Positions 1-37,624 of a DNA stretch of 64,000 nucleotides are shown piece after piece (position 1 is the stretch's first letter; every line of letters starts with the position of its first letter). The stretch is from NCBI GenBank assembly GCA_017640615.1, contig JAEPQK010000007.1, forward strand, positions 104,407 through 168,406, given 5' to 3'. Origin of the DNA: Rhizobiaceae bacterium. Lineage in GTDB: Bacteria; Pseudomonadota; Alphaproteobacteria; Rhizobiales; Rhizobiaceae. The notes beneath the pieces are model-generated. The model was not told the DNA's origin. It was given only the letters and a program-made list of their open reading frames with translations, and made no database searches. The position numbers and the translations under genes were made by a program.

Positions 1-605
1 ATGCAGAGCGGCAGCATCTCGCGCTCCTCTTCCCGATAGATAAGGTTGTAGTGCGGTTGCATGGAAACGAAGCGAGCCCAGCCGTTTGCGCGTTGCAGAC
101 CGAGGGCCTTCATGAACTGCCAGGCGAACATGGAGGAGGCGCCGAGATAACGCACCTTGCCCGAACGCACGACATCGTTAAGCGCCTCAAGCGTCTCTTC
201 CAACGGCGTTTCGTAGTCGAAGCGATGCAACTGCAACAGGTCGATATGATCGGTGCCGAGCCTGCGCAGGCTACCCTCCACACTGTCGAAGACGTGCTTG
301 CGCGAAAGACCGCGATCATTGGGGTCGTCGCTCATCGGATTATAAAGTTTGGTAGCGATTACAAGCTTGTGACGCGGCTGAAGAGGCATCAGTCTGTCGC
401 GCAATATCTCTTCGCTTACGCCGCGCGAGTACATGTCGGCGGTGTCGAAGAGGTTGATACCGCGCTCAACGGCCGCTTCGATGATCGGAGCCGATGCATC
501 GGCGTCGAGCACCCATGACGCCCATTCGGGTGAACCGAATGTCATACACCCGAGGCCGATCCTGGACACTTTGAGCCCGGTTCTGCCCAACGACACATAT
601 TCCAT
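1..605 (-). CDS. aldo/keto reductase (5' part only; 3' end lies outside the window)
   Basis: Manual minus-strand translation from ATG 605-603 gives MEYVSLGRTGLKVSRIGLGCMTFGSPEWASWVLDADASAPII..., a typical AKR N-terminus. It is absent from the ORF track because it runs off the edge. The 51..518 + ORF is its antisense shadow. Confidence 0.8.
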   Translation of the reverse strand, partial: MEYVSLGRTGLKVSRIGLGCMTFGSPEWASWVLDADASAPIIEAAVERGINLFDTADMYSRGVSEEILRDRLMPLQPRHKLVIATKLYNPMSDDPNDRGLSRKHVFDSVEGSLRRLGTDHIDLLQLHRFDYETPLEETLEALNDVVRSGKVRYLGASSMFAWQFMKALGLQRANGWARFVSMQPHYNLIYREEEREMLPLC

Positions 606-684
606 CTTTCCGATTCTCCGCTGTTTGGCGCTCTGCAGCCCAATCCGAGCCGCTGCACGACCATAAATCACATAGTGTCACGTT

Positions 685-1788
685 TTGTTAGCACACGAGT
701 GCACAATTTTTCGCTTGTGTTGTCGTGAGAATCCTAATTACACTCAAAGTGTGACAAACGAACATAACACTTTCGCTTTCGATCTCAACGCCGGCTGCAT
801 CGACAAATCGCTGCCGGTACCGGTGGGCCGCCAGCTTTACGGACTGCTGAGCTATCAGCTTTCGCATGGCGATCTGCGGAAGGGCACACGGCTCCCGTCG
901 GTGCGCCAGCTGGCGCGCTCGCTAGGCATAGCGCAGGCGACGGTTGCGCAGGTCTACAAGGATCTGCGCGATGCCGGGCTACTGGAGATGCGCCATGGCG
1001 CGGGCGCGTTCACCCGTCTCGCAATGCCCACGGACACCGACCTTTCGTCGGGAGACCTGCGTGCCGACATAGCGCGGCTGCTCAACCGGGCCGAACATGC
1101 CGGCATCCCGCCGCTGGCGCTCGTTGGAATGGTCAATGCGCAGGCGCAGCTACGCCAGGGTGCGCCTGGTCTGAACATTGTCTTCGTTGCCATCTTCGAA
1201 GGTCCGGGCCGCGCCTATGTGGATGCGATCATGCCGCATCTCCTGTCTGCTGACCGGGTGACGCTCTTGACCACCTCGGCCCTCACCGAGGACCCGAAGG
1301 CCCGTGCGACCTGTGAAGCAGCCGATCTTGTGCTGACATTCGTTCACCGCACTGCCGAAGTTTCCGCGCTCGTCCCGACAGCGAATGTGATGGGTCTGCG
1401 CTTCATTCCATCCGATGCGACGCGGCAGGCTCTTGCGGCCCTGGACCCGCGTAGCCGGGTCGCGGCCATCACGCATCTTGAAGACTACATCGCCATCATG
1501 CGTCCGAGTGTGCAACGCTTCGCGCCACATATCAGCGATGTCGCCGTTTCGTGGTCGCATGCACCGGACCTGAAGGCGACGATCGCCCGCTCGGACGCCG
1601 TGATCTACGCCACAGGCGCCGACCACGTGGCCGCCATGGTGCGGCCCGGCACCACCTGTTTTGAGTATCGCCACATGCCCGACCCTGCTGGACTCGAGGC
1701 GGATCTGGAACCGCGCCTCGCAGAACTTCGTGCAGGTCGTCGGCTGCGTGTGGTCGAGGGCGGTCTAACGAAGAGCGCCGACATTTGA
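685..1788 (+). CDS. GntR-family transcriptional regulator with a large C-terminal effector domain
   Basis: Winged-helix GntR signature RLPSVRQLARSLGIAQATVAQVYKDLRDAGLLEMRHGAGAFT, followed by a ~270-aa C-terminal domain. The track start is TTG; GTG at 751 is an alternative. The gene is divergent from the AKR and sits upstream of the peptide ABC operon. Confidence 0.75.
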   Translation: MLAHECTIFRLCCRENPNYTQSVTNEHNTFAFDLNAGCIDKSLPVPVGRQLYGLLSYQLSHGDLRKGTRLPSVRQLARSLGIAQATVAQVYKDLRDAGLLEMRHGAGAFTRLAMPTDTDLSSGDLRADIARLLNRAEHAGIPPLALVGMVNAQAQLRQGAPGLNIVFVAIFEGPGRAYVDAIMPHLLSADRVTLLTTSALTEDPKARATCEAADLVLTFVHRTAEVSALVPTANVMGLRFIPSDATRQALAALDPRSRVAAITHLEDYIAIMRPSVQRFAPHISDVAVSWSHAPDLKATIARSDAVIYATGADHVAAMVRPGTTCFEYRHMPDPAGLEADLEPRLAELRAGRRLRVVEGGLTKSADI

Positions 1789-1823
1789 ACCGAGCGACAT
1801 AACGAAAACAGGGAGAAACCGAC

Positions 1824-3338
1824 ATGCTCAGATTCAGACTACTCGCAGCAACCGCCGCGCTTGCTCTCGCAACCGGCATCGCAGGGGCTCAGGAACTCGT
1901 CATCGGTGCCGATGTCGATGCCGGCACGCTCGATCCGCGGCTTGCCCGCGATACGACGGCCTACCGGTCCGTAAATCTCATCTATTCCGGTCTCGTGCAT
2001 TTGACGCCCGAGCTGGAGCCGGTGCCCGACCTGGCAGAAAGCTGGGAAAGCCCGGACCCGAAGACGATCGTATTCACGCTCCGCGAAGGCCTCAAATTCT
2101 CTGATGGCTCCGCGCTCACCGCCGAGGATGTCGTCTTCACTTTCGAGACCATACTGAACCCGGATTTCAGTGCCCCGCAGCGCGGTCTATTCACGCCGAT
2201 TGAAAGCGTGGAGGCGGTCGATGAGCGCACCGTGCGCTTCAATCTCGCTTCGCCCTATGCGCCGCTGCTCAGCTATCTCGACATGGGCATCGTGCCCTCG
2301 GACTACGATGGCGATCTCTCCACCGATCCGGTCGGCGCTGGCCCGATGGTTCTGAGCAACTGGAACCGAGGCTCCGAGATCGTCTTGTCGGCGTCCGACA
2401 GCTACTGGGCGGGTGCTCCTGAGGTCAAAGAGCTGACTTTGCGCATCGTGGGCGACAACGCCGCACGGGCACAAGCCTTCGAAGCGGGTGACCTCGATGT
2501 CATTCAGTCCCCGCTATCGCCGGGCGACATCAAGCGGCTGGCGGCAGACGACAGCTACAATTCAAACCTGTCGGCCGGCCTTGGTGTGACCTATCTCAAC
2601 ATGAACACCAACAACCCGTTGCTGGCCGATCCGGCCACGCGGCGCGCCTTTGCAATGCTGGTCGATCAGTCGACGATCGTGGACGCGATCTATGAAGGCG
2701 TCGATGAGGTTGCGAACTCGATTATTCTGCCGTCTTCATGGGCTTACGACGCCTCGATCGCGCAGCCGACCTTCGACCCTGAAGGCGCAAAAGCCGCCTT
2801 CGCAGAGCTCGGCTGGAGCGACAGCGATGGCGATGGCGTGCTCGACCGTGACGGTCAGAAGCTGTCGGTTACGCTGGCCACTCACAGCGAAGATCCGAAC
2901 CGCATCCAGGCAGTCGAATTTCTGCAGGCTACTATGCAGCAGGCGGGCATCGACGCCCAGGTTCAGATATCGGACTGGCCATCCTTCTCGACCGGATACG
3001 TCCAGAAGGGCGAGCATGAAATCGCGCTTCTCGGTTGGCTCAACATCGTCGATCCCGATCGGCTGACCTACAACCAGCTCACTACGGGTGCCGGCCTCAA
3101 CTGGGGCGGTTATTCGAACGAGGAGGTCGACAAGCTGCTTGAGGAGGGCCGCACCGCGCTCGATCAGGAAGCGCGCAAGGCCGCATATCAGAAGGCGGCG
3201 GCGATCATCGCTGAGGAGGTGCCGTATTACATCATCTCCTATCAGGGCTATCACCTGTTCTACAAAAAGGACATGCCTGCAGATGTGACGGCCAACCCGC
3301 GCGGAACGTTCCGCGGCATGATCGGCATGCCCGGATAA
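1824..3338 (+). CDS. ABC transporter substrate-binding protein, family 5 (DppA/OppA/NikA-like)
   Basis: Signal peptide MLRFRLLAATAALALATGIAGAQE. The ~500-aa length and overall sequence are typical of peptide/nickel binding proteins. GGGAGA RBS upstream. Confidence 0.9.
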   Translation: MLRFRLLAATAALALATGIAGAQELVIGADVDAGTLDPRLARDTTAYRSVNLIYSGLVHLTPELEPVPDLAESWESPDPKTIVFTLREGLKFSDGSALTAEDVVFTFETILNPDFSAPQRGLFTPIESVEAVDERTVRFNLASPYAPLLSYLDMGIVPSDYDGDLSTDPVGAGPMVLSNWNRGSEIVLSASDSYWAGAPEVKELTLRIVGDNAARAQAFEAGDLDVIQSPLSPGDIKRLAADDSYNSNLSAGLGVTYLNMNTNNPLLADPATRRAFAMLVDQSTIVDAIYEGVDEVANSIILPSSWAYDASIAQPTFDPEGAKAAFAELGWSDSDGDGVLDRDGQKLSVTLATHSEDPNRIQAVEFLQATMQQAGIDAQVQISDWPSFSTGYVQKGEHEIALLGWLNIVDPDRLTYNQLTTGAGLNWGGYSNEEVDKLLEEGRTALDQEARKAAYQKAAAIIAEEVPYYIISYQGYHLFYKKDMPADVTANPRGTFRGMIGMPG

Positions 3339-3413
3339 CAGGCTCCGAAATCTCATGCGGCGCGCGCTTCCTAGCGCGCCGCATGAGCCAACCTTTCCGA
3401 ACCCGGTAGAGTC

Positions 3414-4394
3414 ATGACCGCCTACGTGATCCGACGGCTGCTGCTTTTCGTGCCGATGGCAATCGGCATCGTCGTCGTAACCTTCTGCCTATTGCTGCTG
3501 ATCCCGGGCGACCCCGCTGCGGTGCTGCTTGGGCAAGAAGCAACGCCGGAGGCAATCGCCACATTGCGGCGGACGCTGGGCCTGGATCAGCCGGCTTATA
3601 TTCAGCTCTTCATCTATTTCGGAAATATCCTGCAAGGCGACCTCGGCCAGTCGATCTTCCAGAATGCACCGGTGTCGGAAATCATCCTTGGCCGCATCGG
3701 CGCGACGCTGGAACTGGCCATTGTTGCACTCACAATGTCAGCCGCTATCGGCATTACGCTGGGCGTGATTGCCGCCATGCGTCCGGGCGGTATCGTCGAT
3801 GCCTCGGCAATGCTGCTCGCGCAGCTCGGCATCTCCATGCCGGTCTATTGGCTGGCGCTCCTCCTGATGCTGGCTTTCGCTGTGATGCTCGGCTGGCTAC
3901 CGGCAATCGGACGCGGGGAGCCGCTCGTGTCGGCATTCGGCATGGCCTTGGCCGGCAACCCGGCGCCATTGCTTGATTCACTGTCTCACATCGCGCTGCC
4001 TGCGGCCTCGCTGGCTGTCAATTCCGCGGCGATCATTTCGAGGCTCGTACGCGCTTCCATGCTGGAAGTGCTGAACGAGGACTTTGTCCGCACCGCGCGC
4101 GCAAAAGGTGTCCGCCGCAGGCAAGTGATCTGGAACCATGCTCTGCGCAACGCTTTGTTGCCGGTGATCTCAGTGATCGGCCTGCGGTTTGGCGCTTTGC
4201 TGGGCGGTGCAATTCTGACCGAAACAATCTTCGCGTGGCCTGGCCTCGGTCAGCTGACGATTGCGGCTATTTCGCAGCGCGACCTGCCGCTCATCCAAGG
4301 CATCGTGCTGACCTTCGCGATGATCTTCGCCACAGTGACGCTCATCGTCGATCTTCTCTACGCGGTTGTCGATCCGCGAATTCGCCTCAAATGA
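3414..4394 (+). CDS. ABC transporter permease (DppB/OppB-like)
   Basis: Multi-TM protein with a BPD-transporter EAA-like loop (RTARAKGVRRRQVIWNHALRNALLP). Directly follows the binding protein gene. Confidence 0.9.
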   Translation: MTAYVIRRLLLFVPMAIGIVVVTFCLLLLIPGDPAAVLLGQEATPEAIATLRRTLGLDQPAYIQLFIYFGNILQGDLGQSIFQNAPVSEIILGRIGATLELAIVALTMSAAIGITLGVIAAMRPGGIVDASAMLLAQLGISMPVYWLALLLMLAFAVMLGWLPAIGRGEPLVSAFGMALAGNPAPLLDSLSHIALPAASLAVNSAAIISRLVRASMLEVLNEDFVRTARAKGVRRRQVIWNHALRNALLPVISVIGLRFGALLGGAILTETIFAWPGLGQLTIAAISQRDLPLIQGIVLTFAMIFATVTLIVDLLYAVVDPRIRLK

Positions 4395-27626: not shown

Positions 27627-27644
27627 CTCCCTCATTTGGGAGAG
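27627..27644 (+). promoter_or_regulatory. island palindrome S0: CTCCCTCATTTGGGAGAG
   Basis: 18-bp imperfect palindrome 61 nt upstream of the DUF3137-like copy 1 ATG. Confidence 0.6.
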
Positions 27645-27705
27645 GCAAAACCACGACGATGACGGCAATTTCCGGCGGCACGATCACCAGCGACGAGAGC
27701 CGGAC

Positions 27706-28674
27706 ATGGACGACAGACCCGCCACAGCCGCGAGCAGCGGCGACGGCTTCGACTCATATTTCCAGCGCGAGGTCGAACCGGCGCTCGATGCGCTGGAAGA
27801 AAAGCGTGCGACACACGTTCTTTACGTCAAGATTCTGCTCGCAGTCGCAGCGCTGTTTCTGGCAGTCATTCTGTTCAAGGCTTTGACGCGGGACGGCGCG
27901 TCCGAGCAGCTCTTTGAAAACCAGCTGGTCGGGCTCGCCGTTTTTGCGCTCATGTTCATTCCGCTGGTTGCTGCCTTCCTGATCTACCACCGGCTGACAC
28001 GTGCCTATAAGGGCGTGCTCACCGGCAGGATCTGTGACTATTTCGGCTTTGAGTTCGAGGCGCGCGGCTTCGACTTTCCGGTCAACGATTTCGCGGCAGT
28101 GATCCCTCCTTACCGCAGGAAGCAGCTCGAAGACCGGATTGCTGGCCAACACGACGGGGTCAACTTTGCCCTTTGCGAAGCCCGCTTGATGCGCCGTTCC
28201 GACGGCAAGGACAGCGAGGACAAGGAAGTCTTCCGGGGCCTGCTCCTGGCGTTCGAATTGCTCGAGCCATTCAAGGGCGAGACGGTTCTGACACCGGACT
28301 GGGGCGGCGCCGTCAATCTGCTCGAGAGCTGGAGGCAGAAGGGCGAGCGCGTGCTGCTGGAAGGAATCGAATTCGAGGAAACCTTCGAGGTCTACTCCAC
28401 CGATCCGCTAGAAGCGCGTGCCATCCTCACACCGCTCTTCATGGAACGGGTGATGCAACTTGCCGAGCATCTCGGCAGTCGCAAAGGCGTGAGCCTTGCG
28501 TTTCAGGGAAACCGGCTTCTTCTGGCGATCAGGCATTTGCGCACCGAGGGCCGGTTCGAGGCAGGGCACGTCTTCTCCGAGATCGACAATTGGCCTGAAC
28601 GCGCTCAGCGCGTGAAAGATCAGATCGAAACCGTTCTCGGTATCGTCGATGTGTTGAAACTCAGGCCTGTCTGA
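27706..28674 (+). CDS. DUF3137-like membrane protein (copy 1)
   Basis: In frame with ORF 27259..28674, which overlaps the previous gene; start set to ATG 27706. Two N-terminal TM helices (ILLAVAALFLAVILF, LAVFALMFIPLVAAFLIY) then a soluble domain. Architecture and LemA neighbourhood match what I recall of DUF3137; needs an HMM. Confidence 0.6.
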   Translation: MDDRPATAASSGDGFDSYFQREVEPALDALEEKRATHVLYVKILLAVAALFLAVILFKALTRDGASEQLFENQLVGLAVFALMFIPLVAAFLIYHRLTRAYKGVLTGRICDYFGFEFEARGFDFPVNDFAAVIPPYRRKQLEDRIAGQHDGVNFALCEARLMRRSDGKDSEDKEVFRGLLLAFELLEPFKGETVLTPDWGGAVNLLESWRQKGERVLLEGIEFEETFEVYSTDPLEARAILTPLFMERVMQLAEHLGSRKGVSLAFQGNRLLLAIRHLRTEGRFEAGHVFSEIDNWPERAQRVKDQIETVLGIVDVLKLRPV

Positions 28675-28690
28675 GCCGCTGATCTCGAAA

Positions 28691-28708
28691 CTCCCCCAAA
28701 TGGGAGAG
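28691..28708 (+). promoter_or_regulatory. island palindrome S1: CTCCCCCAAATGGGAGAG
   Basis: 59 nt upstream of the lemA ATG and 16 nt after the preceding stop. Confidence 0.6.
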
Positions 28709-28767
28709 TGCCCGCGCCACGTTTTCCGCGAAACGAAAGGTGGAAAATACAGCAGATTGGGCACCCC

Positions 28768-29340
28768 ATGACAGTCACTCTCATTGCACTCGTCGTTCTC
28801 GGTTTCGTCGTCATCCAGAACCGGCTGGCGAGCGCACAGAACGCGGTCTATTCGGGCTTCTCCACGATCGAGGTTCAGCTCAAGCGGCGACACGATCTGG
28901 TTCCAGCACTTGTCAGCTCCGTTCGCAGCGCGATCACACAGGAAAACAAACTGTTCGACACCATTCTCGCTGTTCGCGAGAAGGCCGTACAGGCCGTCGG
29001 TCAGGGCAAGCTGGACGAGATGAAAGAGGCCGAGGCCGAGCTGTCTGCGTCTTTGCGGACGTTCTTCGGATACGCGGAAGATCACCCCGAGGTGACCTCG
29101 ACCACGAACATTCTTGAGCTACAGAAGCAGCTTGAGGAGGCCGAGGACCAGATCAGCGCCGCCCGGCGGCTCTACAATGGCAATGTCCAACGCTTCAACA
29201 CAATGCTGGATGCGATCCCCTCCAACTGGGTAGCCGGCCTTCTCCGGATGAAGAAAGCCGAGTTTTTCGCACTATCGGATTCGGAAGCCAAAGCCGCTCA
29301 TACGATGCCGAAGATCGAATTGCCAGGCGCTCAAGGATGA
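28768..29340 (+). CDS. lemA: LemA family protein
   Basis: MTVTLIALVVLGFVVIQNRLASAQNAV...QLKRRHDLVPALV...ISAARRLYNGNVQRFNTML is the typical LemA layout of one N-terminal TM plus a helical domain. The track ORF starts at GTG 28708. Confidence 0.85.
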   Translation: MTVTLIALVVLGFVVIQNRLASAQNAVYSGFSTIEVQLKRRHDLVPALVSSVRSAITQENKLFDTILAVREKAVQAVGQGKLDEMKEAEAELSASLRTFFGYAEDHPEVTSTTNILELQKQLEEAEDQISAARRLYNGNVQRFNTMLDAIPSNWVAGLLRMKKAEFFALSDSEAKAAHTMPKIELPGAQG

Positions 29341-30368
29341 GTGCGGCGAAAACCCACTGGGACCCCATACGCGGCACAATCGACATCGAAACCCCCGATA
29401 TCGCCAATATCAGAAAGAGTATCGCCGTCCCGCCAATCATATCGCGGATTCTGCTGTTCGCTGCGCTCGCGAGCGTGCTTCTGGTGTTTGTGGAAGGGAT
29501 CATCCAGGGCGACTTTCCCTTCATTTCGGTTGCGGTCACGACGGTGATCTGGGGCCTGTTTCTCGGCGCCAGCCACCTTGAAAACGAAGACGGCCGCAAG
29601 ACAATCCGCCGCGTAAAGCTCGCCAGAAACAAGGGCTGGTCCTACACCGGCGCGTTGATGGAGCGCGTGCGCGAGTTCCAGACGGCGTGGAAAAGCGACG
29701 GCGCGGAACGCACGACACGCCTCGTCAAATCGGAGCGGGCACGTGCCGTCGAGGCCAAGCTTCCAGAGCTGACCAAGGTCCGGCTCGGCGCGTTTGTCGG
29801 CGCGCAGTTCGATGGTGAATTCTGGGGCGAAAGCAGCGAAGACGGGCTTCCGCTCTGGTTTGCCGTAGGCTCGATGCGGATGGAGGCGGGTCTCGCCTTC
29901 AACGCCGATTTGCGGCAAGACGCCTTTGGCGGCAAGGGCGGGTACGGCCAGTTCTTTTCGTTGCTCGGCGCCTACAGAATTGACCGCAAGACCGGCGTGC
30001 GCGCGACCATCATGCCGGAAAACATATTCAACAAGGGGCCGCTCGATCGCGACATCAAGACAGAGTCGGTCGCGTTCAACGAGGCGTTCAATATTTCGGG
30101 ACGCCGCAAGGACGATACATCCGGCAAAGCCGATCCAACGCTCGATGTGTTGCGCATCCTTACGCCGGCAACGCAGGATTCCATGCTGTCGCTCAGCGAG
30201 CGCTACCACAATATCGGGTTCGTGCTCGATGACGATGTCCTCTTCTTCATGGCGCAGGACAAGGTGGTCGGCAAGAACGCGACCCAAGATCGGATCGACA
30301 CGCTGCTTGTCAGTATTTTCGAGGATTTTGAGAAAGCGAAACTCGGCATCAAGCGCTACGTCGAGTAA
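29337..30368 (+). CDS. DUF3137-like membrane protein (divergent copy 2)
   Basis: ATGA overlap with the lemA stop. Two TM helices (ILLFAALASVLLVFV, VAVTTVIWGLFLGA). The C-terminal block ESVAFNEAFNIS...LRILTPATQDSMLSLSERYHNIGFVLDDDVLFFMA parallels IEFEETFEVYS...RAILTPLFMERVMQLAEHL...SLAFQGNRLLLAI in copy 1. Confidence 0.5.
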   Translation: MSAAKTHWDPIRGTIDIETPDIANIRKSIAVPPIISRILLFAALASVLLVFVEGIIQGDFPFISVAVTTVIWGLFLGASHLENEDGRKTIRRVKLARNKGWSYTGALMERVREFQTAWKSDGAERTTRLVKSERARAVEAKLPELTKVRLGAFVGAQFDGEFWGESSEDGLPLWFAVGSMRMEAGLAFNADLRQDAFGGKGGYGQFFSLLGAYRIDRKTGVRATIMPENIFNKGPLDRDIKTESVAFNEAFNISGRRKDDTSGKADPTLDVLRILTPATQDSMLSLSERYHNIGFVLDDDVLFFMAQDKVVGKNATQDRIDTLLVSIFEDFEKAKLGIKRYVE

Positions 30369-30420
30369 GCCACCCTCAACATTTGTAACATTACCTCTAT
30401 ATGTTTTTTCGTGAACGGGT

Positions 30421-30476
30421 TTATGAATGGCTCGTTCATAAGCAGTTCACTGACCAGAACCTAGTTTTGGTTCTGG
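30421..30476 (+). promoter_or_regulatory. two inverted repeats in the AT-rich leader of the LuxR-type gene
   Basis: TTATGAA-N7-TTCATAA (30421-30441) and CCAGAACC-N7-GGTTCTGG (30454-30476). The second arm overlaps the GGAG RBS. Confidence 0.4.
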
Positions 30477-30486
30477 AGAAACATAT

Positions 30487-32292
30487 ATGGAATCCAGATA
30501 CTTACCGCGCGCGAATGCGCCCACATTGTTTTTTAGAACCTGGAAAAGCAAGCCTGGCCCGACCGGCAGCCGGACGAAACGGTCGGTATTCATCGGCCAT
30601 AGCCAACCAACGCATTCTGGCATGATCGAAGGGATCGCGCGCGGATTTCACCGCGCCGGCTGGAACGCGTTCTCCGGCGATATTCGCGGGCACGGCAACA
30701 GCACAGACAAGGATTTCCTGCTCGGTCATCTCAGCGAGCAGGATGGCTGGGGTGAAGCAATCGAAGACATGCGGCTCTTCCTGGAGAAGAGCTTCGAAGG
30801 CGTTGCCTGGGAAGACAGGCTGATTGTTGTGCCCAACATCACCGCGTTGCTGACGCTTGAGGTGATGAAGGACTGGCCGGACCTGGCGCAGCATGTTGTG
30901 CTGATCTCGCCCGTGCCCAACCAGAAGACGCTCGCTCTGTTCGGCAAGGCGTTCACGCAGGTCCGGCTTCGGCTGCGAGGCCCGCGCGAGCCTGACGACC
31001 AAGCATTGCACCATCTCTACACATTTCTCGGAAGCCACTTGAAGGACCGTCAGCACCTGGCGGATGTGATGTCCTCCGACCGGGCCGTCATCCAGAAGGT
31101 GATCGACGACCCGCTGGCATGGCCGACCCCGACCGCATCCTATTGGGCGAGCATCTTCAGCGGCATGCTCTCGGCCTGGAGATGGCCGCGCGGGGCCCGT
31201 GTGAAAGCCGGCACGCGGTTTCTGATAATGTTCGGCGGCGAAGATGCGATGTTGCGCGACGGCGGGTTTCTGGCGCCGATCGAGCGGTTCTTGAGTGGTA
31301 TCGGCGTCGACGATGTTGCTTCTGAGCGCGTCCAGGGCGCTCGCTCGGCACTCTTTCTGGAAGAGGAAAAGTTCAACATCAGCGGCCGGATACTGGACTG
31401 GACCGAGAATCGCAGCCGGCCGAGGGCCGACAATGAGGAGGTCGATGTCGAGCAGATGGCCTCAAGCATGCTTGCGCAGTTCGACAATTTCCGCAGCAGC
31501 AACCTCAGCCCGGATGAACTGGTCGAGCTCTGTTACAACGCCGTCGACGACGAAAGCCGCTGGACCGAGCTCATCTACCGGATGATCTATGAGGCGGAGC
31601 GTTCCGGCGATGCGAGCGAGGAGGAAATCCAGTCGCGCATCAGCCGCGTGATGCCTCACTGGGAGCGCGCCTATAACATCAACCGTCAGGTGATGATGAG
31701 CGCTACACTTGGCGTGCTTTTGCAGGGCGTCATCGAGCGCCTGCAAATCGGCGTGGCGATCCTCGACAAGGAAGGCCACCTGCTGCACGCCAACACCGCC
31801 TACGACGCTGCGGTTGCCAGACTCTTCGGCGGAGCGCAGATGGGAGCCACGACCTGTGTTTCGAAAGCGACGCAGGATTTGCTTTCATCGAGTGTGGCGA
31901 CCGACAGGTCCGGCAGGCCGTCGGAACGGATCATACTGCACGAAGACCGACCGGTCGGCTTTCAGTTTCACCCTGAAGCGCTCAAGCAAACCGGGCTGCA
32001 GAGGCAGGGACCGGCGAGCATTCTCGTGCTGCGTTCGGCAGATGTGGCCGAGCAGGCCAGCGATACACGCCGCGTTCTCGCCGAACTCGCCTATGGCCTG
32101 ACCAGCAAGGAAGCCGAGATCGCGCTTGCCGTTGCCGGTGGGCAAAGCCTGGACGACATAGCCGGGAAAATGGGCATTCTCGTCAGCACCGTCCGCGGGC
32201 ATCTGAAAAAGAGCTTTCACAAGATGGCCGTCCACAGCCAGGCCGAGCTTGCGGCCCGCATCATGTCCGGGCCGCTCGGGTGGCTCAAATAG
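30487..32292 (+). CDS. alpha/beta-hydrolase-like / PAS-like / LuxR-type HTH transcriptional regulator
   Basis: N-terminus resembles lysophospholipase/monoglyceride-lipase-type hydrolases (VFIGHSQPTHSG...SGDIRGHGNS). The middle GVIERLQIGVAILDKEGHLLHANTAY is PAS-like. The C-terminus LTSKEAEIALAVAGGQSLDDIAGKMGILVSTVRGHLKKSFHKM is a GerE/LuxR HTH. GGAG RBS. Confidence 0.75.
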   Translation: MESRYLPRANAPTLFFRTWKSKPGPTGSRTKRSVFIGHSQPTHSGMIEGIARGFHRAGWNAFSGDIRGHGNSTDKDFLLGHLSEQDGWGEAIEDMRLFLEKSFEGVAWEDRLIVVPNITALLTLEVMKDWPDLAQHVVLISPVPNQKTLALFGKAFTQVRLRLRGPREPDDQALHHLYTFLGSHLKDRQHLADVMSSDRAVIQKVIDDPLAWPTPTASYWASIFSGMLSAWRWPRGARVKAGTRFLIMFGGEDAMLRDGGFLAPIERFLSGIGVDDVASERVQGARSALFLEEEKFNISGRILDWTENRSRPRADNEEVDVEQMASSMLAQFDNFRSSNLSPDELVELCYNAVDDESRWTELIYRMIYEAERSGDASEEEIQSRISRVMPHWERAYNINRQVMMSATLGVLLQGVIERLQIGVAILDKEGHLLHANTAYDAAVARLFGGAQMGATTCVSKATQDLLSSSVATDRSGRPSERIILHEDRPVGFQFHPEALKQTGLQRQGPASILVLRSADVAEQASDTRRVLAELAYGLTSKEAEIALAVAGGQSLDDIAGKMGILVSTVRGHLKKSFHKMAVHSQAELAARIMSGPLGWLK

Positions 32293-32310
32293 CCTGTTCA
32301 ACCGGATGCC

Positions 32311-32793
32311 TCAGCACCCGTCCGCGGACGCGGTGAAGTATGAGGTGATCGTGTTTCGCGTCTTGCCGGAATCAGGATCGAAGTTCTGGATGAAGAACTC
32401 CATGTTCTGACGCACGCCAGCGCCAAGAGATTTGCCCGAAAAGGTGAACGTGTACGCCTGCTTGACGGATTTGAAATTTTTGTAGGCCTGCCATTTCGGA
32501 TTGATCGTGGAGTTCTCAGCTCGCCTCATTTGGACGTCGAAGGAACCGCATTTCCCGTTCTTGCAGTTCTTGATTCGTGCCTTGCATTGATTGTTGGCTT
32601 CGAAAAAGAAGACGGTTTTGGTTACGCGGTCGCGGTGCGTGGTCGCATAACATCCGACCGGCGACGGCATGTCGAAACGGGCGCAGCCATTGTTGATCGC
32701 GCCGCTCTGTGCACTCACCGGCTGGGCGGACACGAGTGCCAAAACCAGCCCCGCTGAAATCGAAAATCCTGCCCCAAAAAATCGAATTGTCAT
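32311..32793 (-). CDS. small secreted Cys-rich protein, unknown function
   Basis: Signal peptide MTIRFFGAGFSISAGLVLALVSAQPVSAQS and 7 Cys in the mature part. GC content is visibly lower than in neighbouring genes. Confidence 0.6.
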   Translation of the reverse strand: MTIRFFGAGFSISAGLVLALVSAQPVSAQSGAINNGCARFDMPSPVGCYATTHRDRVTKTVFFFEANNQCKARIKNCKNGKCGSFDVQMRRAENSTINPKWQAYKNFKSVKQAYTFTFSGKSLGAGVRQNMEFFIQNFDPDSGKTRNTITSYFTASADGC

Positions 32794-32861
32794 CTCAAAT
32801 AATCTCCGTTCGTTGCGAATTTCCCTTCGCGCGGAGACTAAGACTTTGACGTCGATGGCCC

Positions 32862-32879
32862 CTCTCCCAAATGGGTGAG
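32862..32879 (-). promoter_or_regulatory. island palindrome S2: CTCACCCATTTGGGAGAG (minus strand)
   Basis: 68 nt upstream of the small secreted protein ATG (32793) and 17 nt after the stop of the repeat-protein gene. Confidence 0.6.
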
Positions 32880-32896
32880 ATCGACCAATTCAACGG

Positions 32897-34117
32897 CTAC
32901 TTGCAGACGATGTAGCTGAAAGCCTGGCAGGCGCCACCCTCGCAATGGGTTCCCGCGCTCATGGCCCTGCTCGCGGTTGTGACACCGTAGCAGAGGGCGC
33001 CGATGCTGCGGGCCTTTGCCAAACAGAAAAGATTCGCCGCAGGCAGTCCGCAATCAGCGGCGTTGCTATTGCCTGCCAAGCAGGTCGAGACGGCAATCCC
33101 CGGCATCAGGCTGGGCGCTTCGAAAAGCCGACCCGGGCAAGGCGTCTCGGAATACCCTTCCCATTGGGTATATGCTGGAGCCGGACCGCTTTCCTTTGCC
33201 TCGTCTTCCCCGAAGAGATCGATGGGTTTGTCGCCCTCGATGGTCGACAGGTCGATGGGCTCTTTGCCTCCGCCATCATCGAAAAGGTCGATCTCTTCCC
33301 CATCGGAGTTTGCGACGTCCTCCTCATCGAACAGTTCGATCGGTTTGTCAGGATCGCCTTCGGCGGGATTGGTGTCGCGTCCATAGGCGTCGGGATAGGC
33401 TTGCTCATACGCTTCGGCGGCGTCGGCCTGAGTGCTCAAGCCGAGTAGAACCTTCGCGCTGTCGGAATCGACAGCCAGTCCCTCACAGCCGAACCCGGCT
33501 GCGCAGCGCAACATGTCCTGATTGTCCACGGTTTCCTGCGGTGTGTGCTCGAGCGCGTCCAGATCGACCGGATTGCCTTTATCGCCCTCGGAGCCGTAGG
33601 CATCGTTGGCGTAAGCTTCGGGATATTCCTGGGCGTAGAGATCACGCGCCTCTGAAACATTGTTTACGCCGGCGAGAACCTTCGCGTCGCCGGCGTTGAC
33701 GTCCAGGCCCTCGCACCCGTAGCCCGCCGCGCAGCGCAGGAGGTCTTGTTCGTCGACCGTTTCCCGGGATGTTTGCTCGATTGCGTCCAGATCGACAGTC
33801 TGCGAGCTTTCTGCATCCCAGTCCTGACTTTCGACGTGATCAGGCTGTTGCTTCGCCTGAGCCTCGTCGGAAAACGCATCCTCGACATAGGCTTCAGGAT
33901 ATGAGGCGGCGTAATCGTCTCGCGCAGCCTCCGCATTGGCGAGACCGAGCGCGGAGCGCGCCTCCTCGGGCGTCGAGGAGAGGCCGGTGCAGCCGAAGCC
34001 GGCGGCGCACCGGAGCTCTTCCTTGACGCCTGGAACCTGCTGCGCGAAAGCCGCCCCAACCACAACAAGCAAGGCGGCGCAGCACGAGGCCGGCCAACGC
34101 CAGGACCAGACACTCAT
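32897..34117 (-). CDS. secreted acidic protein with three LRCAAG(F/Y)GC(E/T)GL repeats and a C-terminal 8-Cys domain
   Basis: Start set to MSVWSWRWPASCCAALLVVVGAAFAQQ (signal peptide), ATGA-overlapping the vWA gene stop. Internal ~76-92-aa repeats. Confidence 0.7.
   Translation of the reverse strand: MSVWSWRWPASCCAALLVVVGAAFAQQVPGVKEELRCAAGFGCTGLSSTPEEARSALGLANAEAARDDYAASYPEAYVEDAFSDEAQAKQQPDHVESQDWDAESSQTVDLDAIEQTSRETVDEQDLLRCAAGYGCEGLDVNAGDAKVLAGVNNVSEARDLYAQEYPEAYANDAYGSEGDKGNPVDLDALEHTPQETVDNQDMLRCAAGFGCEGLAVDSDSAKVLLGLSTQADAAEAYEQAYPDAYGRDTNPAEGDPDKPIELFDEEDVANSDGEEIDLFDDGGGKEPIDLSTIEGDKPIDLFGEDEAKESGPAPAYTQWEGYSETPCPGRLFEAPSLMPGIAVSTCLAGNSNAADCGLPAANLFCLAKARSIGALCYGVTTASRAMSAGTHCEGGACQAFSYIVCK
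33364..34024 (-). repeat. three diverged in-frame coding repeats (~230-275 bp each)
   Basis: They encode ...VDLDA(I/L)E(Q/H)T..ETVD(E/N)QD(L/M)LRCAAG(F/Y)GCEGL...AK(V)L.G......A...Y...YP(E/D)AY..D. The LRC motif falls at residues 58-60, 150-152 and 226-228 of the 429-aa ORF. Confidence 0.75.
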
Positions 34118-36123
34118 TGGCCGATGCTCTCGATGGCGAAGTTGTCGAGGTAGAAGTGGCTCTCGCCGGGAGCGCCCTTGTGCCACTGACCAACGAAGAT
34201 GCTCGGTTTGCCGGACAGTCTCAGCGCAGTGATCGGCTCGCTCTCAATCGAGAAATTACGCGCTTCGCGATCCTCGAATGCCGGCAGCACCATTTCGAGC
34301 GCCGCGGTGACTTGGCGTCCCCGCCGCTTAAGCCTCATAACAGCGCCCTCTTCGTGCAGCGCACGAAAGATGGCGTCGGCGTAAGGGCGGCCTTTGCCGC
34401 AGATATCGTCCACCATCGGGCCGCCAAACAGTGACGTATCGAATGCTGTCTTTTCCGGCTTGGATCTTTCAGCGCCGGCAAGCTTGATCAGCGATAGATG
34501 GATGGCTGGGCCACAGCCCTTCCAATCGGTCCACAATGCCGCGCCGATCTGGTTGTTGGCATCTTCCATGAGCGATAGCCAAATGTGTTCCCGTCCAGTC
34601 TGGAGGACCAGGCGGGCGTCCAGGACGAGGTCGAAGTCGCCATCAGGCAAGGCCTTGTCGAGCACGAAGCGGTTGATTGCGTCCTGCTTGTCATAGTGGT
34701 TGTGCTCGCCTGCCACGGCGACAAACATGGCGCCTTTGCTGTCCAGCGCCTTCAGCTTCCGGTTCTCGTTGATAAACGACCATGCTTCGCTGATTTCCGG
34801 GCCGTCGAAGGTTTCGACAAAATATGCCTCCTGCTGCGGGGGCGGTGCTGGCTGCTCAACTTCCTTGGTCGCGGCGACCGCCTCATTGACCGCCTCGACG
34901 AACTCCTCGGCGTTGTTGGCTGTGTAATAGTTGCCATTGCCCTCGTCCGCGATGCATTGCAATGCGCGGTTCTCCTCATCCGTGAGATCGAAACCAACGA
35001 CATGAACGCGCGTCTTGATGCCCTGGCTGGCGAGCGCCTTAGCTGCAGCGCAGGGATCGCCTCCGCAAGTTTCAAGGCCGTCCGAAATCAGGAGGATATT
35101 CGCCTGCCGGTCGGCCGCCGGGAACACGCCTGCGGCCGCTTCCAGCGTGCGTGCGATAGGGGTTTTGCCACGCGGCGTGATGCCGTTGATTGCCAGACCG
35201 ACCGCCTCCGGCGCGTGGTTCGCCACCGGCAACAATGTCTCGATATCGCCGCAGTCTCCTTCGCGACGGTGTCCGTATGCCATCAAGCCGACATTGGTTT
35301 GCCCGCTCAGGTCGCTGAGCAGGCCGGATAGCGCCTGTTTGGCGGTTGAAATCTTGGCCGTGCCGTCGATCTGCCCCCACATCGAGCCGGAACCGTCGAG
35401 AATGAAAAGCAGGTCGCTGCCCGTCCCGTCATTGGTGTAGGCTGGCGTATCGCCCTGCTCCATGCCGATATCTGCATCCGGGTCGGCGGTGCCGGCCTCG
35501 GCCATTGCGCTTTCTTCATTCATGTGGGCGGGCAAATCGCCTTCTTCCATGCCGGATTCATTTGCGCCTGCCTGCCCGCCCGCCGGCGGGTCAAACAGCG
35601 TGATCTCGGTTGCCGGATCGCAGGCGACATTCGGGATGCCGGCATCGCGCATGAGTTCGGTCAAAGACCAGCCGTCATCGTCGGAATAAATGTCGCTGAT
35701 CTGCCACTCGCCGTTTGCCGCCTTTATCAGGGTGTAGACGAAAGACCGTTGCGCACCGAAATTCGTGAAATCGAGGCGGATTTGCGTAGCTCCGCGAAAC
35801 ATCGGCATGTCGGGATCGGGATAGACCTTCAGCCCGGCGATCTCGGCATCCTGCGCGCCATAGACCGGGTCAAAGCCGAGCTTGCCCTGAAGGCCGTCGA
35901 CGGCCAGGCAATCGACGAAGAAACGCGAAATCATGCCGGCTTCGTTCATCAGAGGCGCATCGTTTGCCTTGAACCGCGCCGTGTGTTTGGCGAACAGAAG
36001 CCGGACGACGTCGCTCGCCTTGCCGAGCTCCTGATCCTGGGCCATCGCAGGCGTTACAATCGCGCCGGCGAGCGTTACGCCGAGCGCGAATATGGTCGTC
36101 GAAATAGCTTTCTTGAGCATCAT
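34114..36123 (-). CDS. secreted von Willebrand factor A (vWA) domain protein
   Basis: Signal peptide MMLKKAISTTIFALGVTLAGAIVTPAMAQ. MIDAS-type DGSGSM motif in LLFILDGSGSMWGQIDG...ILLISDGLETCGGDPC. The C-terminal ~230 aa are paralogous to the upstream gene product. Confidence 0.85.
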   Translation of the reverse strand: MMLKKAISTTIFALGVTLAGAIVTPAMAQDQELGKASDVVRLLFAKHTARFKANDAPLMNEAGMISRFFVDCLAVDGLQGKLGFDPVYGAQDAEIAGLKVYPDPDMPMFRGATQIRLDFTNFGAQRSFVYTLIKAANGEWQISDIYSDDDGWSLTELMRDAGIPNVACDPATEITLFDPPAGGQAGANESGMEEGDLPAHMNEESAMAEAGTADPDADIGMEQGDTPAYTNDGTGSDLLFILDGSGSMWGQIDGTAKISTAKQALSGLLSDLSGQTNVGLMAYGHRREGDCGDIETLLPVANHAPEAVGLAINGITPRGKTPIARTLEAAAGVFPAADRQANILLISDGLETCGGDPCAAAKALASQGIKTRVHVVGFDLTDEENRALQCIADEGNGNYYTANNAEEFVEAVNEAVAATKEVEQPAPPPQQEAYFVETFDGPEISEAWSFINENRKLKALDSKGAMFVAVAGEHNHYDKQDAINRFVLDKALPDGDFDLVLDARLVLQTGREHIWLSLMEDANNQIGAALWTDWKGCGPAIHLSLIKLAGAERSKPEKTAFDTSLFGGPMVDDICGKGRPYADAIFRALHEEGAVMRLKRRGRQVTAALEMVLPAFEDREARNFSIESEPITALRLSGKPSIFVGQWHKGAPGESHFYLDNFAIESIGQ

Positions 36124-36141
36124 GTCGGGAGCCTTTCCAGT

Positions 36142-37050
36142 CTACTCGACTGCAACAATCGTGAAGTCTTCGAAGAGCGCGCTCGTCTCCCCGCTTCTGG
36201 CCTTTCTCGACTGGCCGAGCATGAAAAAGGGCTGGCCGAACGGCGTCACGCGCGAAACGGAATAAGTCGATACCCGCTGCAGCCCGCCCGGGCTGTCGCC
36301 ATGCGGCGGCACCTCAACCGCGATGGTCGCGAAATAGCGGAACCCGCGGCGCGAAAGAGTGAGCTTGAACGCGGCCTCGCCGAGGTTCGCGATAATCTCG
36401 TCGCCGACTGCTCGCGGCCCCTTGCTGCAGATGCCGTCGATAATCGGACCGTCAAGAAGATTGTCCGTGAATGAGGTGACGACAGGCTTGTCGCCCTCGG
36501 CCAGACTGCGCCTGTTTTCCACACGCAGATAGAGGCTGGCGCCACAGCCCTTGGTGTAGACATTGAGATTGGCTGCGAGATAGTTTTCGGCATCCGCCCG
36601 CAGCCCCACCCAGACATCCTCGTAGCCCGTCTTGGCGTCGAGCGTCAGGCTGGCGGTCATGTCGAAATCGGTGTCCGGCATGATCCCGTTGACGAGAAAA
36701 ATGTTGTCGGTTTCGACCGTTGCCGGGTGCGCTTTGCCGCCGGCCTGAAGGGCGAAGATCGCGCCGCCGTCGGGTACATATTTGTCCTGATTTTCGTTGA
36801 CGACCGTCCAGTCCTCGGCCAGCTGGCGGCCATCGAATGTGTCGCTGAAGGGCAAGCGGACTTCCGGCAGAACGACCTCTTCACCAATGACAACGTCTGA
36901 CGCCGCAAGGCGCGCTTTTTCCTCTTCCGAAAGCGTTTCTTGTGCCGGTGCGGCTAGAGTGCCCGCCAGTAGTGTGGCGGCTGCGAGGCCAAAAACTTGC
37001 CGTTTCAACCCGCGGTGAACGCCGGGCACGGAATAGCTTTCCAAACGCAT
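36142..37050 (-). CDS. secreted protein, paralogous to the C-terminal domain of the vWA protein
   Basis: Signal peptide ...VFGLAAATLLAGTLAAPAQE. Matching blocks, this protein versus the vWA protein: FSDTFDGRQLAEDWTVVNEN / FVETFDGPEISEAWSFINEN; MPDTDFDM / LPDGDFDL; GICSKGPR / DICGKGRP; LFEDFTIVAVE / FYLDNFAIESI. AGGAGA RBS. Confidence 0.7.
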   Translation of the reverse strand: MRLESYSVPGVHRGLKRQVFGLAAATLLAGTLAAPAQETLSEEEKARLAASDVVIGEEVVLPEVRLPFSDTFDGRQLAEDWTVVNENQDKYVPDGGAIFALQAGGKAHPATVETDNIFLVNGIMPDTDFDMTASLTLDAKTGYEDVWVGLRADAENYLAANLNVYTKGCGASLYLRVENRRSLAEGDKPVVTSFTDNLLDGPIIDGICSKGPRAVGDEIIANLGEAAFKLTLSRRGFRYFATIAVEVPPHGDSPGGLQRVSTYSVSRVTPFGQPFFMLGQSRKARSGETSALFEDFTIVAVE

Positions 37051-37108
37051 CTGGTCACGTCTCCTGTCTTGAGATCGTGACCGCCTAACAAGCTGCCTGC
37101 CAGGATAC

Positions 37109-37126
37109 CTCCCTCAAATGGGAGAG
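37109..37126. promoter_or_regulatory. island palindrome S3: CTCCCTCAAATGGGAGAG
   Basis: Centred in the 139-bp divergent intergenic region. It lies 58 nt from the vWA-operon ATG (37050) and 63 nt from the membrane-protein ATG (37190). Confidence 0.6.
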
Positions 37127-37189
37127 CTATGAAACATTCTTCAGACACAGTTCCTACGTTATTGCGTCGACCTTCAATGGAGCAGTGGA

Positions 37190-37624
37190 ATGAAACCTAC
37201 CCCCGCCGCAAAGGCGGCTTTGCCGGCGATCGCAATCGTAACGGCGCTGTGCGCCGCGCTTTTGCCCGTAGCAGCGGAGGCGTTCGTGTGGTTCGGCTCG
37301 GGCCAGCCGGAGCGCTTTTTCGCCGAACCCCGCACAATCACTCTTCAGATGCTGCTCGCATCAGGGCCATTCTGGGTTACAGCGCTGCTCATCCCGTCTG
37401 GCGTTCTCACCCATAACCGCGGCAGGGTGCGAAACGGTCTTGCGGCCGGCTTTGCGCTGACACTCGCAATGTGGGCTTGGACCGCATGGGATGGATATAG
37501 CTATCAAGTCGACCCTGGCGCTTCGGGCGGAGCGAATATCGGCCTCGGGCTCGTAATGCTCGCCTCGCCAGCCATGATCCTGCTGGTCATGATTGTGATG
37601 ATTGGCAGAGCTCGCGCCAGCTAG
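37190..37624 (+). CDS. small integral membrane protein (about 4 TM), unknown function
   Basis: Hydrophobic segments LPAIAIVTALCAALLPV, GPFWVTALLIPSGVL, LAAGFALTLAMWAWTAW, IGLGLVMLASPAMILLVMIVMI. GGAG RBS 9 nt upstream. Confidence 0.6.
   Translation: MKPTPAAKAALPAIAIVTALCAALLPVAAEAFVWFGSGQPERFFAEPRTITLQMLLASGPFWVTALLIPSGVLTHNRGRVRNGLAAGFALTLAMWAWTAWDGYSYQVDPGASGGANIGLGLVMLASPAMILLVMIVMIGRARAS

Follow-up and report, generated by a model that had tools for sequence, protein, structure and literature searches.

A stretch of 64,000 nt from a Rhizobiaceae bacterium (GenBank assembly GCA_017640615.1, contig JAEPQK010000007.1, positions 104,407 to 168,406 of the forward strand), called the window throughout this text, contains between 27.6 and 37.1 kb a compact island of genes for envelope proteins together with a gene for a LuxR-type regulator, and an 18-bp palindrome recurs four times in front of these genes. 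The original prediction, made from the letters of this DNA alone, regarded the palindrome (hereafter the box) as a shared cis-element and named the regulator as the candidate protein binding it; here we examine both suggestions by comparing the island, which we call the cassette, with related loci of other bacteria. The cassette genes in the window are the following:

27706..28674, plus strand: gene of a DUF3137 protein (copy 1; Pfam PF11335, E=5e-27) with two transmembrane (TM)-like segments
28768-29340, plus strand: lemA (Pfam LemA, E=5e-40)
29337-30368, plus strand: gene of a DUF3137-like protein of 343 aa (weak Pfam DUF3137 match), with a 4-nt coding overlap with lemA
30487..32292, plus strand: gene of the 601-aa regulator, the candidate binder (Pfam Hydrolase_4 and GerE)
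32311..32793, minus strand: gene of a 160-aa protein with a signal peptide and six Cys residues (sequence features)
32897..37050, minus strand: vWA operon for a secreted protein of 302 aa, a secreted vWA protein of 669 aa and a Cys-rich repeat protein of 429 aa (Pfam VWA; signal peptides)
37190..37624, plus strand: gene of a 144-aa protein (open reading frame with three TM-like segments)

Signal peptides or TM segments are present in every box-adjacent product, and the four boxes, all of them exact matches to the pattern CTCNCNCAWWTGGGAGAG, are placed as follows:

27627..27644, plus strand: box 1, CTCCCTCATTTGGGAGAG, 61 nt from the ATG of DUF3137 copy 1 at 27706
28691..28708, plus strand: box 2, CTCCCCCAAATGGGAGAG, 59 nt from the lemA ATG at 28768 and 16 nt past the stop at 28674
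32862..32879, minus strand: box 3, CTCACCCATTTGGGAGAG, 68 nt from the ATG of the 160-aa secreted Cys-rich protein at 32793 (minus strand) and 17 nt past the stop at 32897
37109..37126, plus strand: box 4, CTCCCTCAAATGGGAGAG, common to the divergent vWA operon (minus strand; 58 nt to the ATG at 37050) and the gene of the 144-aa membrane protein (plus strand; 63 nt to the ATG at 37190)

As read here, the box is CTCNCYCAWWTGRGNGAG, 18 bp long with the C-rich arm on the 5' side. The pattern CTCNCNCAWWTGGGAGAG has no position in the 64-kb window beyond these four, neither exactly nor with up to two mismatches, and in 100 dinucleotide-preserving shuffles of the window it was matched 0.00 times on average. 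The looser dyad TCNCNCAWWTGNGNGA gave four exact, no one-mismatch and five two-mismatch matches in the window, the last number being at chance level; TGGGAGAG is confined to the four box positions in the 64 kb, and the bare GGGAGAG occurs nine times. An unbiased repeat finder returned the box as a family of four copies and 18 nt (shared unit 18-19 nt), whose flanks are not shared, and in all four copies arm position 4 is mismatched with position 15. Exact scans, two-mismatch scans and shuffles thus agree with the original prediction of four palindromes and none elsewhere in the 64 kb, and the distances it gave from boxes to start and stop codons all proved correct when re-read from the sequence. 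Its statement that the GGGAGAG arm always lies on the sense strand of the downstream gene fails for the vWA operon, the sense strand of which reads CTCTCCCATTTGAGGGAG, and holds for the other downstream genes; the vWA operon keeps this opposite box orientation even in orthologous loci lacking the divergent gene (locus and position: L002 16554, L004 15982, L005 16919).

Full-length homologues of the regulator, 36-99% identical, were found in Hoeflea, Roseibium, Amorphus, Nitratireductor, Pelagibacterium, Pseudooceanicola, Aquibium, Pseudahrensia and others, and the DNA compared was that around ten homologues, one plasmid copy (obtained by a protein-mode search) and twenty metagenomic loci. When at most one mismatch is allowed, 27 of the 32 loci containing the regulator possess a generalised dyad, NTCNCNCAWWTGNGNGAN; they come from at least eight genera (Hoeflea, Roseibium, Amorphus, Nitratireductor, Pseudooceanicola, Aquibium, Pseudahrensia and metagenomes), and the number of copies per locus is one to five, or two to five where both 10-kb flanks were read. 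In the genome loci read with both flanks the content of the cassette is constant, comprising lemA with a DUF3137-like gene, the regulator, small exported proteins and the vWA operon, while the genes flanking it differ from genus to genus; the lemA and DUF3137-like pair is kept in all cassettes. Boxes are kept at orthologous promoters too. Upstream of the DUF3137 gene, orthologues of box 1 are found in L001 (7146) and L139 (7143); in 11 of 13 displayed loci the lemA operon has a box upstream of its first ATG, at a distance of 55-66 nt (77 nt in L144), amid DNA that cannot be aligned; orthologues of box 3 stand 62-68 nt before genes for proteins of 130-137 aa (L001, L002, L004, L139, L141 and L145), and in every type-I locus (see below for the two types) an orthologue of box 4 precedes the vWA operon, 55-66 nt away from its first gene. 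The alignment of orthologous intergenic regions, which had been put forward as a check, gave the expected picture upstream of the lemA operon: the box alone is kept and the neighbouring sequence has diverged. Since the box alone persists at orthologous positions within unalignable DNA, it is, as far as sequence comparison can tell, a phylogenetic footprint, and its conservation at orthologous promoters across genera supports the view of a shared cis-element, probably an operator for a dimeric helix-turn-helix (HTH) protein.

The layout of the box is 8-2-8, with inverted 8-bp half-sites in both arms around a centre of two A/T bases (WW). Conservation reaches at least 85% at dyad positions 2, 3, 5, 7 and 8, and at least 95% if position 2 in the distal arm of type I is left aside. 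Two types of half-site can be distinguished: CTCNCYCA (type I) in the closer cassettes, the regulators of which are at least 54% identical to that of the window, and RTCACYCA (type II) in distant ones with regulators of 37-46% identity (Aquibium, Pseudahrensia, a Roseibium aggregatum plasmid and several metagenomic loci), where the whole box reads RTCACYCA-WW-TGRGTGAY. Type-II boxes often form the perfect palindrome GTCACTCAWWTGAGTGAC, position 4 of their half-site always being A and position 1 being G or A, and share their length and the CA-WW-TG centre with type I. The recognition helix of the type-I regulators reads VSTVRGHLKKsF as against I(H/N)TVRTHLKRsY in the type-II regulators; R570, H572 and K574 do not vary, and neither does the C-C-CA core of the box. 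These patterns suggest that half-site type and recognition helix change together. In NarL, the residues K188, V189 and K192 contact bases. In an alignment by eye, K188 and K192 coincide with the invariant R570 and K574, and V189 with the position that differs between the two box types, so that invariant R570 and K574 beside a varying G/T position could account for a conserved core with drifting outer positions. Since it is the sole DNA-binding protein common to the cassettes, and since its helix appears to vary with the box, the product of 30487-32292 is a credible predicted binder, just as originally proposed.

Distances from box to open reading frame, obtained with crude calling of reading frames, fall between 55 and 68 nt in 55 of 103 cases, and when 55 gene-facing flanks were aligned on the edge of the box, a promoter-like signal became visible: G at +1 (42/55), T at +22 (32/55, p=6e-10), A at +23 (37/55, p=4e-14), G at +24, T at +27 (23/55) and C at +33 (35/55, p=3e-7) followed by A, where +1 is the first base past the box. 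The signal persists after collapsing the set to 50 non-redundant sequences. It amounts to a -10-like TAGnnT at +22 to +27, i.e. 21 nt past the box on the gene-facing side, which we take to resemble the CTA-type -10 element of alphaproteobacterial housekeeping promoters, and the C/A at +33/+34 resembles a transcription start. Taken together, the two features predict that the box extends from about -51 to -34 and is centred at about -42.5. In the -35 slot the sequence is AGGCnn, which bears no likeness to TTGACA, and a promoter scan found no sigma-70 consensus promoter at any box. Promoters with a distance of 71-125 nt between box and ATG do not display the TA signal at +22 and are therefore not counted as class II targets. 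The +22 to +27 slots of the window promoters, all predicted from this alignment, are:

27666..27671, plus strand: -10 candidate CAATTT of the DUF3137 copy 1 (DUF3137a) promoter, with a predicted transcription start near 27678
28730..28735, plus strand: slot GAAACG of the lemA promoter, a poor match in which the A at position 2 alone fits
32835..32840, minus strand: -10 candidate TAGTCT of the small-protein promoter, fitting TAGnnT
37148..37153, plus strand: slot CAGTTC of the membrane-protein promoter
37082..37087, minus strand: -10 candidate TAGGCG of the vWA-operon promoter

The regulator itself is composed of several domains. Its 601 aa end in a GerE/LuxR HTH (Pfam GerE, residues 538-589), which matches the DNA-binding domains of VraR, LiaR, NarL and GerE, and it is present in every cassette. 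An AlphaFold2 model (mean confidence, pLDDT, 83) begins with an alpha/beta-hydrolase domain (residues 1-310), from which a long helical region leads to a PAS-like sheet (422-515) and finally to the HTH; the assignment of PAS relies on this predicted sheet and on profile matches below threshold. A Foldseek search matched the N-terminal domain to monoglyceride lipases with a TM-score of about 0.75. At the nucleophile elbow (strand 111-116, helix 117-129), however, the sequence is VPNITA instead of GxSxG and Asn117 (codon at about 30835-30837), invariant in 20 homologues, occupies the position expected for the serine; matches to lipase sequence profiles end before this region. Because of this invariant Asn, the lipase-like domain is probably a non-catalytic sensor, possibly for a ligand, which has lost its nucleophile. 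Pfam gives Hydrolase_4 and not Autoind_bind in the regulator, none of the curated families covers it, and within the island no cassette protein matches a family of synthases of autoinducers, i.e. of acyl-homoserine lactones (AHL).

Independent of the LemA and vWA genes, the box reappears beside shorter relatives of this regulator. About 60 metagenome loci encode PAS-like plus GerE proteins of about 380 aa with a T[VA]RTHLKR helix, and the 521 kb around their genes contain ten exact boxes, mostly xTCACCCAWWTGGGTGAx, as compared with about 0.1 expected for uniform sequence. None of the ten is more than 1 kb away from the regulator gene, and several follow its stop codon by 2-28 nt; no LemA or vWA genes were found near them. 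Those listed by position come from soil and other metagenomes:

Boxes of shorter-regulator loci: L214 1605, 2563; L215 4940, 5873; L172 2124; L183 10745; L194 10707; L197 1019; L210 1629

Since an equal box adjoins the genes of these T[VA]RTHLKR regulators, it would mark a much wider clade of regulators; judged from such neighbourhoods, the box follows the HTH clade and not the cargo genes, which adds to the support for the predicted binder. The shorter proteins have distant similarity to LuxR regulators of the BagY/FevT type (30-42 bits, far under the family cut-off). Outside cassettes, exact boxes are absent from 53 kb of the window and from 329 kb of the R. aggregatum plasmid, these two together containing a single one-mismatch match, and on the whole plasmid of 348.7 kb the box is located at the two divergent cassette promoters only. 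The restriction of the box to the island, claimed earlier, therefore stands for the 64-kb window, for the 10-kb flanks of the compared loci and, as a restriction to the cassette, for one 349-kb plasmid. In a collection of genome contigs searched with CTCNCNCAWWTGGGAGAG, nearly all of the matches listed (at least 120) were single chance matches from every phylum, and L100 (Hoeflea sp. E1-EBD-11) was the only cassette among the matches listed.

Conservation, spacing and co-occurrence lead us to propose, with a probability of roughly three in four, that the box is the operator of the cassette-encoded regulator of the LuxR/NarL family, activating five envelope-protein promoters from a class II position. 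A dimer of the regulator's GerE-type HTHs would bind the two inverted CTCNCYCA half-sites with the A/T dinucleotide between them; lying at about -51 to -34, the box would replace the missing -35 element, and the bound regulator would most likely recruit RNA polymerase as a class II activator, with box 4 (37109) serving two divergent promoters. Five units would be switched on in this way, namely DUF3137, LemA with the DUF3137-like protein, the small Cys-rich protein, the vWA operon and the 3-TM protein, all of which encode membrane or exported proteins only. The lipase-like domain would probably sense a ligand, and in the many cassettes with a LexA-type box on the regulator gene (discussed below) DNA damage is a possible upstream input.

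Some observations should be set against this proposal. The apparent co-variation of box and helix comes from essentially two clades, which makes it phylogenetically weak, and at the loci of shorter regulators some proteins with the T-type helix adjoin boxes in which position 4 is C. Two of the five window promoters have a good TAG at +22, the other three fitting partly. Five regulator loci (L147, L148, L150, L153 and the fragment L155) contain no recognisable box, and the regulator gene of type-I cassettes is not itself preceded by one. Repression, as well as activation, could be exerted from a site at -42.5, and further members of the regulon, or scattered copies of the box, may exist elsewhere in the source genome.

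A rival explanation, repression, retains both regulator and site and differs only in outcome: binding at the -35 region would block RNA polymerase until a ligand or signal arrives. Some proteins of the LuxR family, such as EsaR, ExpR and SmaR, are indeed repressors, and the predicted box overlaps the -35 region by about 2 bp. However, a -35 hexamer is not recognisable (AGGCnn) and no sigma-70 consensus promoter was found at any box, a situation typical of activator-dependent promoters, and LuxR and TraR, which are class II activators, offer a parallel both for the predicted centre at -42.5 and for a site shared by divergent genes; given the missing -35 element, we regard repression as unlikely. 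Less probable is the idea of a different binder, be it an AHL-type LuxR solo, a global regulator or an alternative sigma factor reading GGGAGAG as its -35 element. A protein with Autoind_bind and GerE domains does adjoin lemA in L002, L004 and L141, but such a solo is missing from the window and from most box-bearing cassettes, and its recognition helix (VTVELHLKNARTKL) is unlike that of the TVRxHLK clade. As for a sigma factor, the cassette does not encode one, the box is a dyad used in both orientations, and the 22 nt separating GGGAGA from the -10 slot are too many for a -35/-10 pair; with the box tracking one HTH clade in two unrelated gene contexts, another binder appears very improbable.

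Like any palindrome, the box can fold, local hairpins reaching -9 to -14 kcal/mol, and boxes 2 and 3 are located 16-17 nt past stop codons, which might indicate a function as RNA, i.e. as a hairpin in the 5' untranslated region (5'-UTR), a processing site or a terminator of the upstream gene. Yet fold z-scores are weak, between -0.4 and -2.0, the registers differ between copies and an alternative 5-bp register is lost in type-II boxes; no T-run follows the boxes, no terminator was called at any of them, no Rfam match reached the gathering threshold, and one box sits between divergent genes. Nor is there co-variation, since among 41 type-I sites the pair 4/15 is unpaired in 27 and the pair 6/13 in 13, which bears out the earlier interpretation of the position-4 mismatch as a sign of half-sites and not of a compensated stem. 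In addition, the conserved -10-like element 21 nt downstream implies that the box is probably not transcribed from these promoters, so that the 5'-UTR element formerly offered as an alternative is disfavoured, and an RNA function of any kind seems to us highly improbable. Even harder to sustain is a dispersed repeat of the repetitive extragenic palindromic (REP) or miniature inverted-repeat transposable element (MITE) type, unlinked to these genes. It is true that CTCNCNCAWWTGGGAGAG also matches genuine REP-like elements in Rhodanobacter, Rhodospirillales and other contigs, where cccCTCTCCCgcaagcGGGAGAGggg is followed by ttggggagaggg in several copies per 8 kb (L053 (Rhodanobacter) 3-3484, L033 3404-3499, L058 226-319, L098 421, 1998, 7430). 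The window copies, in contrast, lack the long GC-rich stems and the second module, GGGAGAGGG, of those elements, and the box is fixed at 55-68 nt from starts, kept at orthologous promoters across genera and missing in its exact form from the 53 kb and 329 kb outside cassettes, leaving this explanation with hardly any plausibility.

Operators of known LuxR-type proteins provide the nearest parallels to the activator site proposed here. On the Ti plasmids of Agrobacterium, TraR acts at the tra box, ATGTGCAGATCTGCACAT. Box and tra box have in common the 18-bp inverted repeat (read in our case from sequence) for a dimer with LuxR-type HTHs, the divergent use, and the occurrence of several boxes within one self-contained gene set encoding its own regulator. 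They differ in that the sequences are unrelated, that the regulator here combines Hydrolase_4 and a PAS-like part and has no AHL-binding domain, and that the cassette is without a luxI/traI gene and targets envelope proteins, not conjugation genes. Tra boxes are 18-bp dyads located about 45 nt upstream of the start and overlapping the -35 element, tra box I drives two divergent operons, and the central bases of the box matter even though TraR does not read them (PMC3907764). The lux box of Vibrio fischeri, a 20-bp dyad centred at -42.5 in an activator-dependent promoter (PMC3376562), is likewise a dyad operator comparable to a box predicted at -51 to -34; it is unlike ours in length (20 versus 18 bp) and sequence, LuxR depends on AHL, and the transcription start to which our coordinates refer is a predicted one.

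PimM, a PAS-LuxR regulator of Streptomyces, recognises the 16-bp box CTVGGGAWWTCCCBAG in the -35 region of the promoters of its cluster (PMC9774167). It resembles the present case in the PAS-type sensor with a C-terminal LuxR HTH, in a palindromic box that has CT...AG ends, G/C triplets and WW at its centre, and in the location of this box (here a predicted one) at the -35 region of more than one promoter within a single gene cluster. The PimM box is, however, 7-2-7 with GGG on its 5' arm, compared with 8-2-8 and CCC on the 5' arm here, and CTCNCYCAWWTGRGNGAG does not fit the PimM consensus; the likeness is one of box and domain layout, the regulator of the cassette being a protein of 601 aa with an additional pseudo-hydrolase domain, from another phylum and with other targets. 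The 7-2-7 sites of NarL and the boxes of DosR, LiaR and VraR share inverted half-sites, two central bases and dimers of GerE-type HTHs, and the HTH of the regulator aligns without gaps with the DNA-binding domains of NarL, VraR and LiaR. Those proteins are nevertheless response regulators controlled by phosphorylation, whereas the regulator here has no receiver domain, and the half-site differs. As read from its sequence, the box fits none of the tra, lux and PimM boxes, though its layout appears to work like theirs, and as the element would act like the textbook operators of LuxR and TraR, the mechanism is not a surprising one. Neither the box sequence nor the peptide of the recognition helix was found in the searchable literature, and literature searches for LemA with DUF3137, and for LemA with vWA and LuxR, returned nothing relevant.

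The promoter of the regulator gene carries an element of its own, predicted to be a LexA box of the alphaproteobacterial kind and distinct from the 18-bp box:

30434..30448, plus strand: LexA-type direct repeat GTTCATAAGCAGTTC (GTTCN7GTTC), 38 nt before the regulator ATG
Further loci with exact GTTCN7GTTC: L001 9949, L005 9943, L006 9912, L009 9943, L100 1051, L139 9950, L142 9913, L145 9949, L146 9922

GTTCN7GTTC is the LexA consensus of Caulobacter (PMC9578287 Table 1, PMC4211646). Of 28 loci, 10 (among them the window and two type-II cassettes) have an exact copy 36-74 nt upstream of the start codon of the regulator, and three more loci have a copy with one mismatch (ATTC...GTTC), all 13 being within 34-76 nt of the ATG; about 0.02 would be expected by chance in that slot. 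The repeat is absent from the Roseibium-type and Rhodobacterales cassettes. In the lineages that bear it, the regulator gene may be under SOS control; DNA damage and the envelope programme would then be connected, which is unexpected. Taken further, release from LexA and a receptor domain for a lipid-like or small ligand would form the two inputs of a self-contained programme producing LemA, DUF3137, vWA and Cys-rich proteins from lux-box-like sites, an idea that we put forward as speculative and rather doubtful. If true, it would provide the first regulatory or physiological handle on the widespread LemA and DUF3137 proteins, and the dead lipase domain would be a bacterial counterpart of the alpha/beta-hydrolase receptors of plants, fused directly to a DNA-binding domain.

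LemA and DUF3137 proteins are widespread and have no known role; here they are found in a compact, portable cassette with its own regulator, operator and predictable promoter layout, which makes for an easy experimental entry point to these proteins. The pseudo-lipase/PAS-like/LuxR architecture, together with the T[VA]RTHLKR clade, gains a candidate recognition sequence, usable for predicting regulons in marine and soil bacteria.

With respect to the surroundings of the cassette, GC content is flat across the island in the window, no integrase or tRNA adjoins the island, a tRNA search having found nothing, and a megablast of the island against plasmids gave nothing but an irrelevant 147-bp match. 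A known defence system was considered as well and set aside, the PADLOC defence models giving no meaningful match. Searches of Pfam and of curated families returned no family match for the 160-aa Cys-rich protein. Within the vWA operon, residues 62-301 of the 302-aa protein (36142-37050, minus strand) and the last 240 residues of the vWA protein (34114-36123, minus strand) are paralogues, with 32% identity and E=2e-36, i.e. an unnamed domain occurs both free-standing and fused to the C-terminus of the vWA protein. The exported 429-aa protein (32897-34186, minus strand) has 16 Cys residues and internal repeats of about 76 aa (33433-33568 and 33661-33796), each with the motif LRCAAGFGCxGL; if begun at the listed GTG, its coding region would share 73 nt with the vWA gene, and the true start is therefore probably further downstream.

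A third variant of the box was sought in L147, L148, L150 and L153, with no result beyond a palindrome of 32 bp, ggtgcacgGTCTCGCATGCGTGACcgtgcacc, which two of them have about 200 nt before the regulator (L147 2009-2040, L150 9771-9802) and the core of which resembles the box without its two central A/T bases. In Roseibium-type cassettes, the slot of the window's DUF3137 copy 1 is taken by an AHL-type LuxR solo (Autoind_bind and GerE, 236 aa), directly upstream of the lemA box (L002 7447-8157, L004 7423-8133, L003 2601-3311). The cassette of L008 (GCA_019801745.1, labelled Ferrimonas balearica) has a layout near-identical to that of the Pseudooceanicola locus L007, and its neighbouring genes (TRAP/DctP, LysR, GcvT) are Rhodobacterales-like; the gammaproteobacterial label may therefore reflect contamination or mislabelling. 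Close to the regulator gene of the window, a -10-like hexamer, CTATAT, is present at 30397-30402, and a hairpin, CCAGAACC-N6-GGTTCTGG, at 30455-30476 ends inside the Shine-Dalgarno region of the gene. This hairpin is kept by compensatory changes in L001 (CCAGAGC...GCTCTGG) and L139 (CCAGAAC...GTTCTGG) and may be an element of translational control.

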